A DNA stretch of 64,000 bases from a virus. Taxonomy: Duplodnaviria; Heunggongvirae; Uroviricota; Caudoviricetes. Both the position numbers and the translations under genes were made by a program. This document shows positions 20,946 through 52,728 of this stretch, piece by piece. Each line of letters opens with the position of its first letter. The stretch's first letter is position 1. Below the pieces are notes generated by a model. It was given only the letters and a program-made list of their open reading frames with translations. It ran no database searches and was not told the origin of the DNA. The DNA lies in IMG/VR virus record IMGVR_UViG_2565956713_000001; one strand, given 5' to 3'.

Positions 20946-21640
20946 CAATTAACTATCAGGTACTGCGTGAGGCGGCAGAAAAGGCAACACCAGACGAATG
21001 GGTCGCATTTATTTCGACGGATACTGGTACTTATGCGGTGCACACGCCCGGTGATGAACGATGTGAAGACGTTATCAAATGGACCGGCTTTGATGGACAG
21101 AAAAATGCAGAGAACAACGCTCGTCATGTTGCCGCGTTCAACCCAAAGGTTGCACTGGAGCTGCTTGGTGAAATTAAGTGCCTGGAGGACACAAAAATTG
21201 ATGCTATGTGTCGAATTGCAGAGCTTGAGACTAATCTCGCGGCGCTGGTGGCAGAGAACGCCGGGCTGAAACACGCAATGGCCGTAACTCTTGAGCATGT
21301 GTCGGTCACGGATGCAGGGCAGACCGGAGTTGCTGCAATGATTATCAACGATGCCCTGCACCACAGCGAAACTCCAGCTACCGATGCTTTTCTGGCTGAA
21401 ATTCGTGCGGAAGCACGCAACGAGGGGATTAACTATACCGCCAGCCGTCTTGCTGCTGCGTTCAATCACGGATTTATCAATAAGTCTTTGCGTGAAGTTT
21501 TCGACGTTACACGCATGATTTTGTCAGCGAAAGAAGAGTTGGCTAATGAAGCGCATCCGATTGATGGCCTGTCTGGTGAATATGCGGAGAAATCCCTTGA
21601 AGAATGGGCGGAACAGATTCGCAAAGGAAGCAGCCAGTGA
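20933..21640 (+). CDS. Ea22-like protein (paralog family member)
   Basis: N-terminal INYQVLREAAEKA and internal PATDAFLAEIRAEA motifs shared with the 21924 and 22634 ORFs. Confidence 0.5.
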   Translation: MARMTINYQVLREAAEKATPDEWVAFISTDTGTYAVHTPGDERCEDVIKWTGFDGQKNAENNARHVAAFNPKVALELLGEIKCLEDTKIDAMCRIAELETNLAALVAENAGLKHAMAVTLEHVSVTDAGQTGVAAMIINDALHHSETPATDAFLAEIRAEARNEGINYTASRLAAAFNHGFINKSLREVFDVTRMILSAKEELANEAHPIDGLSGEYAEKSLEEWAEQIRKGSSQ

Positions 21641-31452: not shown

Positions 31453-32646
31453 GTGACCTGGGACGATCACAAGAAGAATTTTGCTCGCCTGGCGCGAGAT
31501 GGTGGTTACACCATCGCACAATATGCCGCCGAGTTTAATCTCAACCCAAACACCGCACGTCGTTATCTCCGTGCATTCAAAGAAGACACCGGAACAGCGG
31601 ACAGCCGTAAGCCAAATAAGCCTGTCAGAAAACCACTAAAAAGCATGATCATTGATCACGCTAATGATCAACGTGCAGGTGATCACATTGTGGCTGAAAT
31701 GGCTGAAAAACAAAGAGTTAATGCTGTTGTCAGTGCCGCAGTCGAGAACGCGAAGCGCCAGAATAAGCGCATAAATGATCGTTCTGATGATCATGACGTG
31801 ATCACCCGCGCCCACCGGACCTTACGTGATCGCCTGGAACGCGACACCCTGGATGATGATGGTGAACGCTTTGAATTCGAAGCTGGCGATTACCTGATAG
31901 ATAACGTTGAAGCGCGGAAGGCCGCGCGCGCTATGTTGCGTCGGTCCGGGGCCGATGTTCTGGAAACCACTCTTCTGGAAAAGTCTCTTTCTCATCTCCT
32001 TATGCTGGAGAACGCCAGGGATACGTGTATTCGCCTGGTGCAGGAAATGCGCGATCAGCAAAAAGACGATGATGAAGGTACTCCGCCTGAATACCGTATC
32101 GCGAGCATGCTAAACAGCTGTTCCGCGCAGATAAGCAGCCTGATCAACACCATTTACAGCATCCGGAATAACTATCGAAAAGAAAGCCGGGAGGCGGAAA
32201 AGCACGCTTTGTCTATGGGGCAAGCTGGCATTGTTAAGCTGGCATACGAACGAAAGCGTGAAAATAACTGGTCAGTGCTGGAAGCAGCTGAATTCATCGA
32301 GGCGCATGGCGGGAAAGTGCCGCCCCTGATGCTGGAGCAAATCAAAGCCGATCTGCGTGCTCCTAAGACCAATACCGATGATGAGGAAAGGCAAACAGCC
32401 GTCGGTGGCCCTTCTCTTGAAGATCTGGACAAAGTTGCGCGAGAACGGGCCGCCAACCGCCGCGCCGATGCCGCATTGTGGATTGAGCAGCGTAGGGAAG
32501 AAATCGCCGATATCGTTGATACAGGCGGTTATGGAGATGTTGATACTGAAGGTGTATCAAACGACCCATGGCTGGAACAAGACCTGGACGAAGACGAGGA
32601 GGAAGACGAAGAAGTTACCCGCAAGCTATACGGGGATGATGATTAA
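31453..32646 (+). CDS. pacA: Terminase small/pacase subunit PacA
   Basis: 397-aa ORF (GTG start with AAGGAAG RBS) containing the pac site; acidic C-terminus. Confidence 0.85.
31646..31804 (+). other. pac: pac packaging site: seven TGATC(A/G) hexamers (four left, three right) with Dam GATC sites
   Basis: TGATCA at 31646, 31653, 31665, 31680 and TGATCG/TGATCA at 31776, 31788, 31799, about 160 bp, inside pacA. Confidence 0.8.
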
Positions 32647-34130
32647 TGGCCAGAAGTTGCGTAACGGATCCACGTTGGCGCGAGCTGGTGGCGCTATATC
32701 GTTATGACTGGATTGCGGCCGCTGATGTTTTGTTCGGCAAAACACCTACCTGGCAGCAGGATCTGATTATTGAGTCTGTGCAGGAACAGGGTAGCAAGAC
32801 ATCTGTTTCGTCTGGTCACGGTACCGGGAAATCAGACATGACTTCTATCATGATCATGTTGTTCATAATCATGTATCCAGGTGCCCGTGCCATTATCGTT
32901 GCGAACAAAATTCAGCAGGTAATGACCGGTATATTCAAGTACATCAAGATAAACTGGGCTACTGCCACCAGCCGTTTCCCATGGCTTGCTGATTATTTTG
33001 TTCTGACAGAAACCGCTTTCTATGAGGTTACTGGTAAAGGTGTATGGACTGTAGTACCGAAGGGCTTTCGTCTGGGAAGTGAAGAAGCTCTCGCCGGTGA
33101 ACACGCAGATCATCTTCTGTATATTATCGATGAAGCCTCCGGTGTCAGTGATAGAGCTTTCGGTATCATCACCGGTGCTCTTACCGGACAGGATAACCGC
33201 ATCTTATTACTGTCACAGCCTACACGCCCAAGCGGCTATTTCTACGATACTCACCATAAACTGGCCAAGCGTCCTGGTAACCCTGATGGCGTTTATACGG
33301 CGATCACGCTTAACAGTGAGGAATCACCGCTGGTAACGCCAGCATTTATCAAAATGAAGCTGGCGGAGTACGGCGGGCGTGATAACCCTATGTACATGAT
33401 TAAGGTACGCGGACTATTCCCTAAATCACAGGATGGCTTCCTTCTTGGACGTGATGAGGTTGAACGTGCGACGCGGCGGAAAGTCAAGATTGCCAAAGGA
33501 TGGGGCTGGCTTGCATGTGTGGACGTTGCTGGTGGTACGGGACGGGATAAGTCCGTTATCAATATCATGATGGTGTCCGGCCAGAGAAATAAACGCCGTG
33601 TAATCAACTATCGAATGCTGGAATACACAGACGTTACAGAAACGCAGCTTGCCGCCAAAATTTTCGCAGAATGTAATCCTGAGCGATTCCCAAATATCAC
33701 CATAGCGATAGACGGCGATGGGCTGGGTAAAGCAACGGCGGATCTGATGTACGAGTATTATGGTATTACCGTACAGCGTATACGCTGGGGTAAAAAGATG
33801 CATAGCCGTGAAGATAAGAGCCTGTACTTTGATAAACGTGCTTATGCCAACGTTCAAGCCGCAGAGGCCGTAAAATCTGGTCGTATGAGACTGGATAAGG
33901 GTAATGAAACTATTGAGGAAGCGTCGAAAATCCCTGTAGGGATTAACTCCGCAGGTCAATGGAAGGTGATGAGTAAGGAGGATATGAAGAAAAAACTCAA
34001 CCTGCATTCACCAGACCATTGGGATACATATTGTTTCGCTATGCTGGCGGATTATGTTCCCCAGGATGAAGTGCTTAGCGTCGAAGACGAAGCGCAGGTT
34101 GATGAAGCTCTGGCATGGCTTAATGAGTAA
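32646..34130 (+). CDS. pacB: Terminase large/pacase subunit PacB
   Basis: 494-aa ORF overlapping the pacA stop; Walker A-like GHGTGKS. Confidence 0.85.
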
Positions 34131-34133
34131 AAT

Positions 34134-34150
34134 CTTGCTCTAATAAATTG
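34134..34150 (+). promoter_or_regulatory. C1 operator-like site upstream of the icd/ant-like module
   Basis: CTTGCTCTAATAAATTG, 15/17 consensus match directly after the pacB stop. Confidence 0.55.
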
Positions 34151-34280
34151 TGTTTTTTGACTGCCGATGTTACATTGAACCTGACCTCTTGCGCCTTGAG
34201 GCATTTTCGGTTTATGCTTATCAGGCACCTCATTAAAACGGGTGCCGGGATTGGCCTCCCGCTTAAGTCTAAGGCGATAC

Positions 34281-34304
34281 AGACGCCGCTCGCGTCTTTT
34301 TTTT
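34281..34304 (+). terminator. Rho-independent terminator, possible 3' end of a C4-like small RNA
   Basis: AGACGC-CGCTC-GCGTCT hairpin followed by a T8 run, between the operator and the icd-like RBS. Confidence 0.55.
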
Positions 34305-34469
34305 GTATCGGCGTACACGCACACCTCTACAATGGTGGGCTGTATGGGGCTACCTTCGGGTAGGCTGGTTACCTTGGACGCCAGTAAGGCCAACTCCGTA
34401 CAGTCCACCGCCAGCAAGATTGGTCTCTTCTGCGGTGGTTACATACCAACGTCTAAGGAGGCTGCCAAT

Positions 34470-34691
34470 ATGGCTACTATCCCTACCCCAACTCATCCTG
34501 TATTTATCTGGCGCTTTTACTCCTGCCAAAAACGTCACTATCACTTCGTTATTGCACCGACAGAAGATGAGGCCCGCTCTCAGCTTCCTGACGCCCCATG
34601 TATTTTCTCTGCCCGTTTTTCCACTGATTCACGCAATTCTCTCAGTTACTGGTGCCTCCCTGTTAACGCTTCTGCTCAGGAGGGACTATGA
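34470..34691 (+). CDS. icd: Icd-like small protein (73 codons), translationally coupled to the antirepressor
   Basis: Strong RBS AAGGAGG 9 nt upstream; stop TGA overlaps the ant ATG (ATGA); size and coupling match the P1 icd-ant arrangement. Confidence 0.6.
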   Translation: MATIPTPTHPVFIWRFYSCQKRHYHFVIAPTEDEARSQLPDAPCIFSARFSTDSRNSLSYWCLPVNASAQEGL

Positions 34692-35803
34692 GAACATCGT
34701 TAGTTACCCGTGAAGAGATGATCGAGGCAATTGAACAGCACACTGCCTGTATCAGTACCAGGGATATACCAGGCGTTATTGCCAACTACTTCATGATCAC
34801 CAAACAACTTTACCGGAGAAAGGACAAGAACGCTGTTCACCGTATCCTGCTGTCTGATATCCGTGAATACCTGCTCGAACAGGGGCATCTGAATTACGCA
34901 ACCGTCGCAGCCGAAACACGCAAGGAGGCACACAGAATGAAAGCTACTAACGTTAAATCTGAAAAAATTAATACACCTTTAGTTCAGGAATCAGAACTGG
35001 TGGTTGTTCAAAGTCAGCCGGATGAAATTCCCGTTCTAGAGTGGCAGGGAGTGCGTGTAGTGACAACTAAGATCCTTGCTAAGGGGTATGGGACAGATGC
35101 GGATAACATCAAGAAGAACTTTTCCCGTAATGCTGAACGTTTTTGTGAAGGTAAGCATTTCTATAAAGTTATTGGAGATGATTTGAACAATTTGCGGGTG
35201 ACTTTAAGTAACTCACAAAATCCTATCTCTCCTAAAGCCCGCTCACTCATCCTCTGGACGGAACGCGGCGCAGCCCGCCACGCTAAAATGCTCGAAACCG
35301 ATCAGGCATGGGCATTCTTTGAAAAACTGGAAGACAGCTACTTCCGGCAAAAAGAACAGCAACCGGTTGCAATCCCCCAGACGCTTCCAGAAGCTCTGCG
35401 CCTGGCTGCCGAACTGGCTGAACAAAAGCAGCTTCTGGAACAGAAAGCCCACCAGCTAAATCAGCAGCTGGTGGCCGCCGCTCCTAAAGTCGATTTTGCC
35501 GACCGGGTATCAGTAGCTAAAGGGATCCTGATTGGGAATTTTGCAAAGGTCGTTGGACTTAAACAAAATGCGCTGTTTGCCTGGTTACGGGAGAACGGCA
35601 TCCTGATAGCGTCCGGTGGACGTAAAAATGTGCCGTTCCAGCAGTACATCAACGCGGGGTATTTCACGGTGAAAGAAGTGGTGCTGGATGATGAAGATGG
35701 CTACCAGATACGGTTGACGCCTCAATTAACGGGTAAAGGCCAGCAGTGGTTGACGCGTAAACTGCTCGATGCTGGCTTGTTAAAACCGGTGGCGGCTGAA
35801 TAA
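34688..35803 (+). CDS. ant: Antirepressor (Bro-N/ORF6N N-terminal domain plus KilAC C-terminal domain)
   Basis: 371 aa; Bro-N-like KILAKGYGTDADNIKKNFSRNAERFCEGKHFYKV; KilAC-like C-terminus; in-frame Met84 could give a shorter Ant2-like product. Confidence 0.75.
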   Translation: MRTSLVTREEMIEAIEQHTACISTRDIPGVIANYFMITKQLYRRKDKNAVHRILLSDIREYLLEQGHLNYATVAAETRKEAHRMKATNVKSEKINTPLVQESELVVVQSQPDEIPVLEWQGVRVVTTKILAKGYGTDADNIKKNFSRNAERFCEGKHFYKVIGDDLNNLRVTLSNSQNPISPKARSLILWTERGAARHAKMLETDQAWAFFEKLEDSYFRQKEQQPVAIPQTLPEALRLAAELAEQKQLLEQKAHQLNQQLVAAAPKVDFADRVSVAKGILIGNFAKVVGLKQNALFAWLRENGILIASGGRKNVPFQQYINAGYFTVKEVVLDDEDGYQIRLTPQLTGKGQQWLTRKLLDAGLLKPVAAE

Positions 35804-35835
35804 TGGAAGAATGCCCGGTTGATGCCGGGCATAAT

Positions 35836-36687
35836 TTATTGCGCGCTTTCGGGGTTGTCGTTTACTGGCTGCCCCTTCTTGGTTTTACGGCTGCGCGTAA
35901 CTGATGCGGCTGACTTAACCTTTTTCTCTTCGCGAGTGATGGCAATTTGTTTTTTTACATTTTCAATATCTGCCAGGCGATATATTTTTGCTTGCGGCCA
36001 GCGGTCGCAGATGATCGGTTCTATGGAGTCATAAAGGCTAAATTTTGCTTTCTCGAATTCACCGTTGATGATGATTCCATCACGGAGAGTTTCATCGCAG
36101 ATAAACACACCACACAGCGGCACATGGTAACTAACTGATTTACCATCATTGTAGTTAGGGCTACTGGAAATGTAATGGACGCGCAACATTGTTTCGCTAA
36201 AGCCGTGTACACGCATACGGAATTTTTCATCCTCCGGGTACTGCTTCATTAGCTCTTTTGTTGCTTCCAGGTTCTCTATGTATTTCGCACTGTGCTCATT
36301 GATCCCCGCGCTTTTTTGGATGCGAATGTCCTTATCAATCAGATGAATAATGCGGCCAGCGGTCATGTTGACGCTGTTCACAGCTTCTGTCTGATAAGTT
36401 GTAACCTTACGCACACCGCGAAGGATGTTAGGCACTGGATATAAAATAGTCTTTGGGATATTGAGGTCTGGGTACTGTTCCAGTTCCCGCGCCATTAAAG
36501 TCCATTTATCAATTTCAGCCTGAATGCTGTCAGTTTCTTTGAACGGTAGAACGACAACCGGGCGTACAGGACGACCGTCGCTGGCTGTATCAACGTGTTG
36601 GGCGCGTGCAACAGCTTTTTTTAGAAAGAGATCCCTGAAGCTGACGAACTCCTGGTACAGTTGTTCGCCGTAGACATAATTTATCAT
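35836..36687 (-). CDS. c1: C1 repressor of lysis/lysogeny
   Basis: 283-aa protein matching recalled P1 C1 size, position near loxP, and coi upstream. Confidence 0.9.
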   Translation of the reverse strand: MINYVYGEQLYQEFVSFRDLFLKKAVARAQHVDTASDGRPVRPVVVLPFKETDSIQAEIDKWTLMARELEQYPDLNIPKTILYPVPNILRGVRKVTTYQTEAVNSVNMTAGRIIHLIDKDIRIQKSAGINEHSAKYIENLEATKELMKQYPEDEKFRMRVHGFSETMLRVHYISSSPNYNDGKSVSYHVPLCGVFICDETLRDGIIINGEFEKAKFSLYDSIEPIICDRWPQAKIYRLADIENVKKQIAITREEKKVKSAASVTRSRKTKKGQPVNDNPESAQ

Positions 36688-37839: not shown

Positions 37840-38871
37840 ATGTCCAATTTACTGACCGTACACCAAAATTTGCCTGCATTACCGGTCGATGCAACGAGTG
37901 ATGAGGTTCGCAAGAACCTGATGGACATGTTCAGGGATCGCCAGGCGTTTTCTGAGCATACCTGGAAAATGCTTCTGTCCGTTTGCCGGTCGTGGGCGGC
38001 ATGGTGCAAGTTGAATAACCGGAAATGGTTTCCCGCAGAACCTGAAGATGTTCGCGATTATCTTCTATATCTTCAGGCGCGCGGTCTGGCAGTAAAAACT
38101 ATCCAGCAACATTTGGGCCAGCTAAACATGCTTCATCGTCGGTCCGGGCTGCCACGACCAAGTGACAGCAATGCTGTTTCACTGGTTATGCGGCGGATTC
38201 GAAAAGAAAACGTTGATGCCGGTGAACGTGCAAAACAGGCATTGGCGTTCGAACGCACTGATTTCGACCAGGTTCGTTCACTCATGGAAAATAGCGATCG
38301 CTGCCAGGATATACGGAATCTGGCATTTCTGGGGATTGCTTATAACACCCTGTTACGTATAGCCGAAATTGCCAGGATCAGGGTTAAAGATATCTCACGT
38401 ACTGACGGTGGGAGAATGTTAATCCATATTGGCAGAACGAAAACGCTGGTTAGCACCGCAGGTGTAGAGAAGGCACTTAGCCTGGGGGTAACTAAACTGG
38501 TCGAGCGATGGATTTCTGTCTCTGGTGTGGCTGATGATCCGAATAACTACCTGTTTTGCCGTGTCAGAAAAAATGGTGTTGCCGCGCCATCTGCCACCAG
38601 CCAGCTATCAACTCGCGCTCTGGAAGGGATTTTTGAAGCAACTCATCGATTGATTTACGGCGCTAAGGATGACTCTGGGCAGAGATACCTGGCCTGGTCT
38701 GGACACAGTGCCCGTGTCGGAGCCGCGCGAGATATGGCCCGCGCCGGAGTTTCAATACCGGAGATCATGCAAGCTGGTGGCTGGACCAACGTAAATATTG
38801 TCATGAACTATATCCGTAACCTGGATAGTGAAACAGGGGCAATGGTGCGCCTGCTGGAAGATGGCGATTAG
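37840..38871 (+). CDS. cre: Cre site-specific tyrosine recombinase
   Basis: 343-aa protein beginning MSNLLTVHQNLPALPVDATSDEVRKNLMDMFRDRQAFSEHTWKMLLSVCRSWAAWCKL... matching the Cre sequence as recalled; loxP 420 bp upstream. Confidence 0.98.
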   Translation: MSNLLTVHQNLPALPVDATSDEVRKNLMDMFRDRQAFSEHTWKMLLSVCRSWAAWCKLNNRKWFPAEPEDVRDYLLYLQARGLAVKTIQQHLGQLNMLHRRSGLPRPSDSNAVSLVMRRIRKENVDAGERAKQALAFERTDFDQVRSLMENSDRCQDIRNLAFLGIAYNTLLRIAEIARIRVKDISRTDGGRMLIHIGRTKTLVSTAGVEKALSLGVTKLVERWISVSGVADDPNNYLFCRVRKNGVAAPSATSQLSTRALEGIFEATHRLIYGAKDDSGQRYLAWSGHSARVGAARDMARAGVSIPEIMQAGGWTNVNIVMNYIRNLDSETGAMVRLLEDGD

Positions 38872-39394: not shown

Positions 39395-39480
39395 GCAGTT
39401 TTTGTCAACTACGAAGACGTTGCCATTACTTCACTCCTTGACATCATAGGCGGCCATTAGGCCGCCTTTTTTTTGACCAT

Positions 39481-40041
39481 ATGAAAACAATCGAACAAAA
39501 AATTGAACAGTGCCGCAAGTGGCAGAAGGCAGCCAGAGAACGAGCGATCGCTCGGCAACGGGAGAAGTTGGCTGATCCGGTCTGGCGAGAATCTCAATAT
39601 CAGAAAATGCGGGATACTATCGATCGCCGTATCGCTAAACAGAAAGAGCGCCCACCAGCCAGCAAAACGCGGAAAAGCGCGGTAAAAATAAAATCTCGTG
39701 GCTTGAAGGGGAGAACACCAACGGCGGAGGAACGGCGCATCGCCAATGCTCTTGGCACTCTCCCCTGCATTGCCTGCTATATGCATGGAGTAATATCTAA
39801 TGAGGTGTCTCTGCACCATATCGCCGGTCGTACCGCGCCGGGTTGTCATAAAAAGCAATTGCCACTTTGTAGATGGCACCACCAGCATGCAGCACCGGCT
39901 GAAGTAAGAGCAAAATACCCCTGGCTGGTCCCTGTTCATGCCGATGGTGTGGTTGGAGGCAAGAAAGAATTCACCCTGCTGAACAAGTCAGAGATGGAGT
40001 TACTGGCTGACGCCTATGAGATGGCAAACATCATGCACTAA
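39481..40041 (+). CDS. ref: Ref, RecA-dependent HNH endonuclease (recombination enhancement function)
   Basis: 186-aa protein with basic N-terminus and Cys/His-rich HNH-like C-terminus; C1 operators upstream. Confidence 0.75.
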   Translation: MKTIEQKIEQCRKWQKAARERAIARQREKLADPVWRESQYQKMRDTIDRRIAKQKERPPASKTRKSAVKIKSRGLKGRTPTAEERRIANALGTLPCIACYMHGVISNEVSLHHIAGRTAPGCHKKQLPLCRWHHQHAAPAEVRAKYPWLVPVHADGVVGGKKEFTLLNKSEMELLADAYEMANIMH

Positions 40042-49692: not shown

Positions 49693-52423
<2,731 letters not shown>

Positions 52424-52436
52424 CCACCAAAAATAA

Positions 52437-52462
52437 CCCCGGCAGCTGCCGGGGTTCTCGTT
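52437..52462 (+). terminator. Rho-independent terminator after pro
   Basis: CCCCGGCAGCTGCCGGGG palindromic hairpin followed by TTCTCGTT. Confidence 0.55.
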
Positions 52463-52467
52463 AACTA

Positions 52468-52728
52468 TTATCGCCTTCGCCTGCGTGCCATATATTTGCG
52501 CACCGCGCGGCGTGGACAATCTGAAGCGGTTTCTTTCTGCTGCATCAATCTCGCAGCCATGCTCAAAAATGTCAGGCACAGCCGAAGCCCGGCATACAAT
52601 AGCGGTTCCAGTGGCCACGTCTCATTGAGCACATATACCGCCATGAAAATCGAGTCAAAAACTATCGCCGCCAGCGATAACTTCATTGTCGAAAGTCGGC
52701 GGAGCTGCCGGAGTTTATTCATTGACAA
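52468..52728 (-). CDS. Small membrane protein downstream of lyz (possibly lysis-associated)
   Basis: 86-aa ORF with one hydrophobic helix and Arg-rich C-terminus, overlapping the lyz stop. Confidence 0.3.
   Translation of the reverse strand: MSMNKLRQLRRLSTMKLSLAAIVFDSIFMAVYVLNETWPLEPLLYAGLRLCLTFLSMAARLMQQKETASDCPRRAVRKYMARRRRR

Follow-up and report, generated by a model that had tools for sequence, protein, structure and literature searches.

In reference P1 the convergent genes pacB and c1 are separated by a spacer of only 24 bp, which raises the question of what the ~1.7 kb (34131-35835) found in its place in IMGVR_UViG_2565956713_000001, a P1-like phage-plasmid, might be and whether it is likely to work. 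The stretch of this element that was analysed, referred to here as the window, comprises 64,000 nucleotides. An earlier reading of the same DNA (hereafter the original prediction) proposed an antirepressor module of the immI type, with a C1 operator, an antisense RNA, a small icd-like open reading frame and ant, either relocated from its usual place or additional to it. Our analysis identifies a complete, intact, extra immI-type cassette, and we consider it likely that it works as P1 immI does. The antisense RNA, however, is encoded elsewhere in the cassette than first proposed.

The immI-type cassette between pacB and c1

The narrowness of the pacB-c1 gap in reference P1, which holds no module, identifies the DNA at this point in the window as an insertion; the original prediction, too, had pacB directly followed by c1 in P1. 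Downstream of ant comes c1 on the opposite strand, with neither kilA nor repL, as had been remarked. When the module was aligned to P1 immI every annotated element had a counterpart, with Oc4, P2c4, P1c4, a1, b1, c4, a2, b2, icd, ant1 and ant2 following one another in the same order, on the same strand and at the same spacing (Table 1). The reading as a c4-icd-ant module under a C1 operator is thus borne out element by element, and the operator, the terminator, the 73- and 371-codon reading frames and the short motifs all lie where they had been placed. That description passed straight from the terminator to the first reading frame, omitting 165 bp (34305-34469) that contain the match to C4.

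The C4 gene gives a full-length match to Rfam family RF01695, to which P1 C4 also belongs, scoring 75.9 bits where the family's gathering threshold is 45 (whole-window E 4.7e-13), and it aligns with the annotated P1 c4. The mature RNA is predicted to span about 34334-34409. Folded alone, C4 takes the shape of its family (-41.6 kcal/mol, z -3.5) and leaves both recognition segments, b' and a', unpaired. Their targets a2 and b2 occupy the positions annotated as a2 and b2 in P1; a2 forms 7 of 7 pairs with a' and b2 forms 8 of 8 with b', each duplex including one G.U.

Upstream of C4 lies a leader RNA whose match to isrK (RF01394) is full-length (34225-34302, 60.8 bits, the gathering threshold being 50) and ends at the predicted intrinsic terminator, which the terminator scan recovered as a stem followed by a T-run. 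The leader differs in type from that of P1: the c4-a1b1 model (RF03163), with which P1-type leaders score 51-57 bits, gives only 20.5 bits here (E 0.006), below its gathering score of 46.7. It folds as three hairpins and carries a1 and b1, same-sense duplicates of the true targets a2 and b2. The leader segment can be recognised as a set of duplicate sense targets because a' and b' of C4 pair with a1 and b1 as well as with a2 and b2. The read-through RNA is predicted, in its minimum-energy fold, to form the duplexes a1:a' and b1:b' in cis, an arrangement that resembles the inactive structure described for Gifsy-1.

Both reading frames are well supported. The smaller, of 73 codons in P1 as well as here, was correctly paired with an AAGGAGG ribosome-binding site; its product matches NCBIfam phage_ICD_like (49.8 bits) and PHROG 1426 and shares 53 of 73 residues with P1 Icd. 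The ratio of nonsynonymous to synonymous differences (pN/pS) is 0.22 against P1 and 0.05-0.25 across comparisons; judged by these values icd is under purifying selection, and the reading frame is conserved. For the product of ant1, which matches PHROG 63 over its full length, the predicted size, ATGA overlap (also found in P1) and KilAC domain stood, but the proposed Bro-N domain did not. At E <= 0.01 Pfam gives only ORF6N (residues 116-201) and ANT/KilAC (PF03374, residues 259-360, 109.5 bits). Ant is 55% identical to P1 Ant1 overall and homologous to it at both ends, residues 1-83 resembling the Ant1-specific N-terminus and the C-terminus reaching ~93%, whereas the centre is unrelated: P1 Ant lacks ORF6N, and AnrP, the antirepressor of Gifsy-1, shares 53% identity with the centre of the Ant found here. 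The codon for Met84 (in RKEAHRM) stands at the position of the annotated P1 ant2 start and would provide a nested in-frame start here.

The operator CTTGCTCTAATAAATTG was predicted correctly and departs from the P1 consensus ATTGCTCTAATAAATTT at two positions, both terminal; it is one of 14 operator-like sites in the window at no more than three mismatches to that consensus. It is monovalent, as at the P1 locus. The -35 element of the candidate P2c4 counterpart shares 3 nt with the operator, exactly as in P1, and a second candidate, expected to be independent of C1, aligns with TTGACA-N18-TATATT upstream of Gifsy-1 isrK. A consensus promoter scan of 34050-35900 returned no promoter in the leader and left the P2c4 counterpart under threshold, so these promoters are proposed solely through alignment to P1 and Gifsy-1.

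Is the cassette relocated, or additional to the canonical one? Over the module the window is 99.9% identical to pD72-mcr1; together with four other plasmids this makes five records at 99.7-99.9%. In P1 and P7 immI lies between sim and kilA-repL, and pD72-mcr1 carries both the pacB-c1 cassette and a canonical icd-ant-kilA-repL locus, the latter with its own C4 and another specificity (a TTAGCAG, b ACTTACG). Of the two possibilities left by the original prediction, relocation can be set aside: since pD72-mcr1 holds both loci, the pacB-c1 cassette is, by comparison with its close relatives, an additional one.

Table 1. Positions of the cassette elements and neighbouring genes in the window, with the C4 genes of one related plasmid
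Feature	Position	Strand	Basis or remark
C1 operator CTTGCTCTAATAAATTG	34134-34150	+	Counterpart of P1 Oc4/Op51; alignment to annotated P1 Oc4
Candidate C1-controlled promoter	34148-34176	+	-35 TTGTGT, 17 nt, -10 TACATT; P1 P2c4/P51a counterpart by alignment only
Candidate C1-independent promoter	34189-34218	+	-35 TTGCGC, 18 nt, -10 TATGCT; would start the leader at ~34225
Alternative candidate promoter	34196-34224	+	TTGAGG-N17-TATCAG; aligns with P1 P1c4
Leader RNA, IsrK / c4-a1b1 type	34225-34304	+	Rfam, fold, terminator scan
a1	34251-34257	+	Hairpin loop in leader
b1	34267-34274	+	In leader
Intrinsic terminator	34281-34304	+	Stem 34281-34297, then T-run; terminator scan
C4 antisense RNA gene	34328-34415	+	Rfam C4, full-length
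b' CCUUGGAC	34372-34379	+	In 10-nt loop of C4 fold
a' AGGCCAA	34387-34393	+	Single-stranded joint of C4 fold
C4 target region	34420-34461	+	Positions match annotated P1 a2/b2
a2 TTGGTCT	34420-34426	+	
b2 GTCTAAGG	34451-34458	+	Overlaps icd Shine-Dalgarno
icd Shine-Dalgarno AAGGAGG	34455-34461	+	
icd, 73 codons	34470-34691	+	Stop overlaps ant1 start (ATGA, 34688-34691)
ant1, 371 codons	34688-35803	+	P1 Ant1-like N-terminus, ORF6N centre, KilAC/ANT C-terminus
Putative ant2-type nested start, Met84	34937-35803	+	In frame; AAGGAGG at 34922-34928
G+C-rich hairpin	35811-35832		Probably a terminator shared by convergent ant and c1; terminator scan
pacA	31453-32646		
pacB	32646-34130		
c1 repressor	35836-36687	-	281/283 identical to P1 C1.100 (99%)
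cre	37840-38871		
p06-3542 C4 genes	L087: 342-427, 28487-28572; L088: 7201-7286, 14990-15075, 21454-21541		

Matched alleles of C4 and its targets

Scanning viral contigs with the Icd protein gave 79 loci, and from their upstream regions, together with those of P1, RCS47 and pD72-mcr1, 61 distinct sequences were parsed. Eleven a/b allele combinations were distinguished among them, and in all 11 the complementarity is complete, a' matching a1 as well as a2 and b' matching b1 as well as b2. Alleles at a assort independently of those at b. P7, Gifsy-1 and the Stx2a (Shiga toxin 2a) phage P13374 supply further alleles that all obey the same rule. Seven a alleles and ten b alleles were found, every one of them matched in triplets. 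Read from these alignments, the pattern is one of three-site compensatory change and not the product of linkage alone, and the alleles provide a clean set of naturally occurring compensatory mutations in an antisense RNA and its targets.

The window has its own specificity (a TTGGCCT, b GTCTAAGG), which differs from those of P1 and P7 and from all other alleles found, including that at the canonical immI of its closest relative, while the complementarity of its a and b segments follows the logic that separates P1 from P7. Exactly the same allele set is shared by 27 loci, and it is the sole combination with G.U wobbles. Duplex energies calculated between C4 and targets of different types favoured the cognate pair but discriminated poorly, because the calculation ignores intramolecular structure; the table of in-register pairings was used instead.

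Proposed working of the cassette and alternatives

If the cassette works as P1 immI does, C1 bound to the operator would shut the overlapping promoter, and a weaker C1-independent promoter would initiate the leader near 34225. The majority of transcripts would end at the leader terminator, yielding an IsrK-like RNA of ~80 nt with a1 and b1; read-through transcripts would include C4, to be excised as a stable RNA of ~76 nt. The loop segment b' and the single-stranded a' would then pair with b2 and a2 on the messenger RNA and, as b2 overlaps the icd Shine-Dalgarno, icd would stay untranslated. With the ant1 start lying inside the icd stop and presumably dependent on icd translation, neither Ant1 nor Ant2 would be made. 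Where C4 is absent or outcompeted, Icd, with its block of cell division, and Ant1/Ant2 would be produced, and Ant would go on to inactivate C1. Derepression of this kind might occur when the element enters a cell lacking C4 of this type, or else when the leader titrates C4; by analogy with IsrK of Gifsy-1, the IsrK-like leader may act as such a decoy. A resident C4 would also act in trans, silencing any cassette of its own type that an incoming phage brings. In P1 both RNase P processing and Rho polarity operate, and the two may apply here. This working is supported by Rfam matches to C4 and isrK with the order and strand expected, by the ATGA overlap together with a Met84 start carrying its own AAGGAGG, as in P1, and by a C1 that is 99% identical to that of P1. 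Further support comes from the alignment with P1 immI, the C4 fold, the covarying alleles, the selection on icd, the exchange of Ant centres between cassette sites and leader types, the two cassettes of differing specificity in pD72-mcr1, and the experiments on Gifsy-1 described below.

Several points weigh against this account. The cassette is known here from sequence alone, and because the window stops short of the canonical immI position its additional status rests on close relatives. Neither candidate promoter passes the consensus scan. A strong terminator stands upstream of C4, so that the supply of C4 would depend on read-through. The a2:a' and b:b' pairings each contain a G.U wobble, found in none of the 10 other combinations, and repression may be weaker as a result. 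Finally, the centre of Ant is unlike that of P1 Ant and resembles Gifsy-1 AnrP, so that C1 is its likely and not its certain target.

The original prediction placed the antisense RNA itself upstream, taking 34160-34304 as a C4-like RNA in which ATTGGCCTCC (34250-34259) would pair with GGAGG-CTG-CCAAT (GGAGGCTGCCAAT, 34457-34469) and so hide the icd/ant ribosome-binding site. The motifs are present and complementary in the window (5 + 5 bp around a 3-nt bulge), and the segment does end in a terminator and probably yields a discrete small RNA, but we regard this assignment as very improbable. The full-length C4 match lies elsewhere, at 34328-34415, and 34160-34304 belongs instead with the IsrK and a1b1 leader families, being a sense leader that carries a1 and b1. 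The duplex of ATTGGCCTCC with the ribosome-binding region does not exceed chance, at -22.9 kcal/mol against -20.1 +/- 3.0 for shuffled sequences, 73 of 500 of which did as well. Nor is the pairing conserved: the ribosome-binding region is nearly invariant, and a1 shifts with a' and a2, so that haplotypes whose a1 reads TTGAGAC or TTGGAAC retain only 2 of the 5 pairs with GGAGG, and leaders of the window type are also found with CCATT in place of CCAAT. The reported direct copy of GTCTAAGG at 34267 and 34451 exists, and the two copies are b1 and b2; a same-sense copy of b2 cannot pair with b2.

It is unlikely, in our judgement, that regulation is as described and Ant is directed at a repressor other than C1, such as that of lambdoid prophages of the Gifsy or Stx type, with the cassette acting as a device of cross-talk or competition. 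Such a role would suit an ORF6N centre that is shared with Gifsy-1 AnrP and not with P1 Ant1, and a leader and C4 scaffold closer to that of Stx2a phages (~79.5-79.9%) than to that of the RCS47-type cassette at the same site (74%); moreover Gifsy-phage antirepressors are reported to act on the repressors of other prophages (PMC3121763). Yet Ant resembles its P1 counterpart at the Ant1-specific N-terminus as well as in the KilAC part at its C-terminus, and the cassette retains a C1 operator and adjoins c1. The Ant types also seem interchangeable, which would be expected if their function is shared: ORF6N-type and P1-type Ant are found with both kinds of leader and at a number of sites, the former behind P1-type leaders elsewhere and the latter at pacB-c1 itself (contigs L006 and L038), and this exchange, to the extent that comparison of sequences can tell, favours a shared target, namely C1. 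We give hardly any credence to the idea that the plasmid merely carries an inactive remnant. Weak promoters and the wobbles in the C4-target pairs of the window allele could be taken that way, but every reading frame is intact, the RNA elements score far above the Rfam thresholds, and besides the purifying selection on icd there are the 27 loci with the exact allele set and some 268 plasmids in the PLSDB database with the full module.

Related switches and cassettes at other sites

The pacB-c1 arrangement is common and already annotated, not rare. In PLSDB at least 80% of the module is present in 268 of ~570-616 plasmids with the same pacB (~45%), and icd homologues were found at 1014 places in 675 records. 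The module occupies the identical site in RCS47, pTZ20_1P, vB_EcoM-673R5, JL22 and many P1-like plasmids; RefSeq labels the insertion as an Icd-like protein plus a KilAC antirepressor, and Venturini et al. (2019, PMC6906374) mentioned an insertion at this point of 'two short hypothetical orfs' together with ant, noting RCS47 as a parallel. The cassette of RCS47 has the same gene content and is 92% identical overall but only 74% identical over leader and C4, and its specificity differs (a TTGAGAC, b GTCAAAGG). The C4 and c4-a1b1 motifs themselves were defined by Weinberg et al. (2010, PMC2864571); we found no published dissection of the RNA parts of the pacB-c1 insertion in the searchable literature, and in the insertion records inspected the RNA genes (C4 and the IsrK-type leader) and the ant2 start are unannotated. 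Some records instead call a 39-codon 'ash family' open reading frame over C4, as in contig L088, where the RefSeq 'ash family protein' at 21418-21537 overlaps the C4 gene of the pacB-c1 cassette; this probably represents an RNA gene miscalled as protein-coding. For the window the main outcome is a corrected annotation, with C4, its IsrK-type leader and a putative ant2 start added.

The isrK-orf45-anrP locus of Gifsy-1 offers a close parallel. Its IsrK leader shares the family's three hairpins and terminator with the leader described here, and the locus has a matched a/b set of its own (TTGGCGT/ACGCCAA and TCACCG/CGGTGA). In the Gifsy-1 sequence (L085) Rfam C4 falls at 34131-34214 on the minus strand, inside the published 'orf45', and c4-a1b1 overlaps isrK. 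Experiments in Gifsy-1 established that the terminated short RNA activates the read-through messenger RNA in trans, that translation of the antirepressor is coupled to that of a reading frame upstream, and that a processed RNA of ~80 nt, STnc1160, is made (PMC4825925). STnc1160 is probably C4. That study makes no mention of C4, P1 or icd (PMC4825925), and IsrK and C4 are treated as unrelated both in the IsrK paper and in a 2025 review. There are differences too: Gifsy-1 has no icd, the start of anrP aligning with that of icd; it has no C1 operator and lies in a lambdoid context adjoining the Q antiterminator; and AnrP, although its N-terminal domain corresponds to the centre of the window's Ant, lacks both the KilAC domain and the Ant1 N-terminus.

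At the DNA level the closest relatives of 34226-34480 outside P1-like elements are Stx2a phages (P13374, TL-2011c, Ss-VASD and others), with 79-80% identity. Their C4 stems are identical, and the downstream gene opens with the same five codons (MATIP) as icd in the window, but they have their own specificity (a TTGCTAC, b AATCAAGG), and that gene encodes a Rha-family regulator of ~261 amino acids, icd being absent. In P13374, the O104:H4 outbreak Stx2a phage (L089, 1800-2052), in Ss-VASD (L090) and in many other Stx phages the leader-C4 scaffold stands ahead of this Rha-type regulator. Salmonella IsrK, the P1 a1b1 leader and the Stx-phage cassette are, on these data, one portable RNA switch placed before different antirepressors.

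Within P1-like genomes, cassettes of ~1.7 kb and immI type also occur at no fewer than four other intergenic sites. Escherichia albertii plasmid p06-3542 (NZ_CP034163.1, 95.7 kb, P1-like) has five C4 genes in five cassettes at five sites, namely after ban, at the canonical position, after lyz, on the mat/ref side of cre, and at pacB-c1 (Table 1); no two of the five share an a/b combination or even a b allele, and the canonical cassette is of the P7 type. In the window three of the sites used elsewhere are unoccupied (~8300-8358, 39472-40033 and 52419-52475), two of them having only a short terminator hairpin and the third (39472-40033) being the ref region. Related contigs have immI cassettes there (L083/L084, L073/L076/L077/L080 and L072), and the cassettes at these three sites begin with a palindromic double C1 operator, in contrast to the monovalent one here and at the P1 locus. 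Cassettes take the place of short terminator-containing spacers, and the hairpin at 35811-35832 also ends cassettes located at other sites; no terminal repeats or target duplications were seen at cassette ends at the five sites checked. In L033 and L042 cassettes with IsrK-type leaders stand at the canonical position, followed by kilA and repL, so that leader types are not bound to one site.

It is conceivable, and we hold it as a tentative view somewhat short of probable, that P1-like phage-plasmids gather immI cassettes as a repertoire, each with its own C4 and target as lock and key, at five or more fixed intergenic sites, the pacB-c1 cassette being one slot of a combinatorial, RNA-based immunity. 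We found no description of such a repertoire in the searchable literature. If it is true, a resident element would silence the antirepressors of a wider range of related phages, and a phage would gain a further antirepressor, one beyond the reach of a resident of a different type. It would also explain patterns of heteroimmunity among P1-like plasmids and, as these carry mcr-1, blaCTX-M and blaSHV, bear on their coexistence and displacement. Of the present findings, the repertoire of multiple cassettes most deserves further study.

Some individual records merit comment. In contig L002 (vB_EcoM-673R5, 4762-5585) c1, pacA and ant are fragmented, which suggests frameshift errors in the deposited sequence. 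In L058 (IMGVR_UViG_2609459791_000005) pacB coding sequence is fused to b2 and the Shine-Dalgarno, with nothing left of the remainder of pacB or of the operator, leader and C4; the record represents either an icd-ant freed from regulation or an artefact of assembly. As to the rest of the window, its genes include coi in addition to pacA, pacB, c1 and cre, and a whole-window Rfam scan placed three tRNA genes at 3429-3501, 3507-3579 and 5583-5655.

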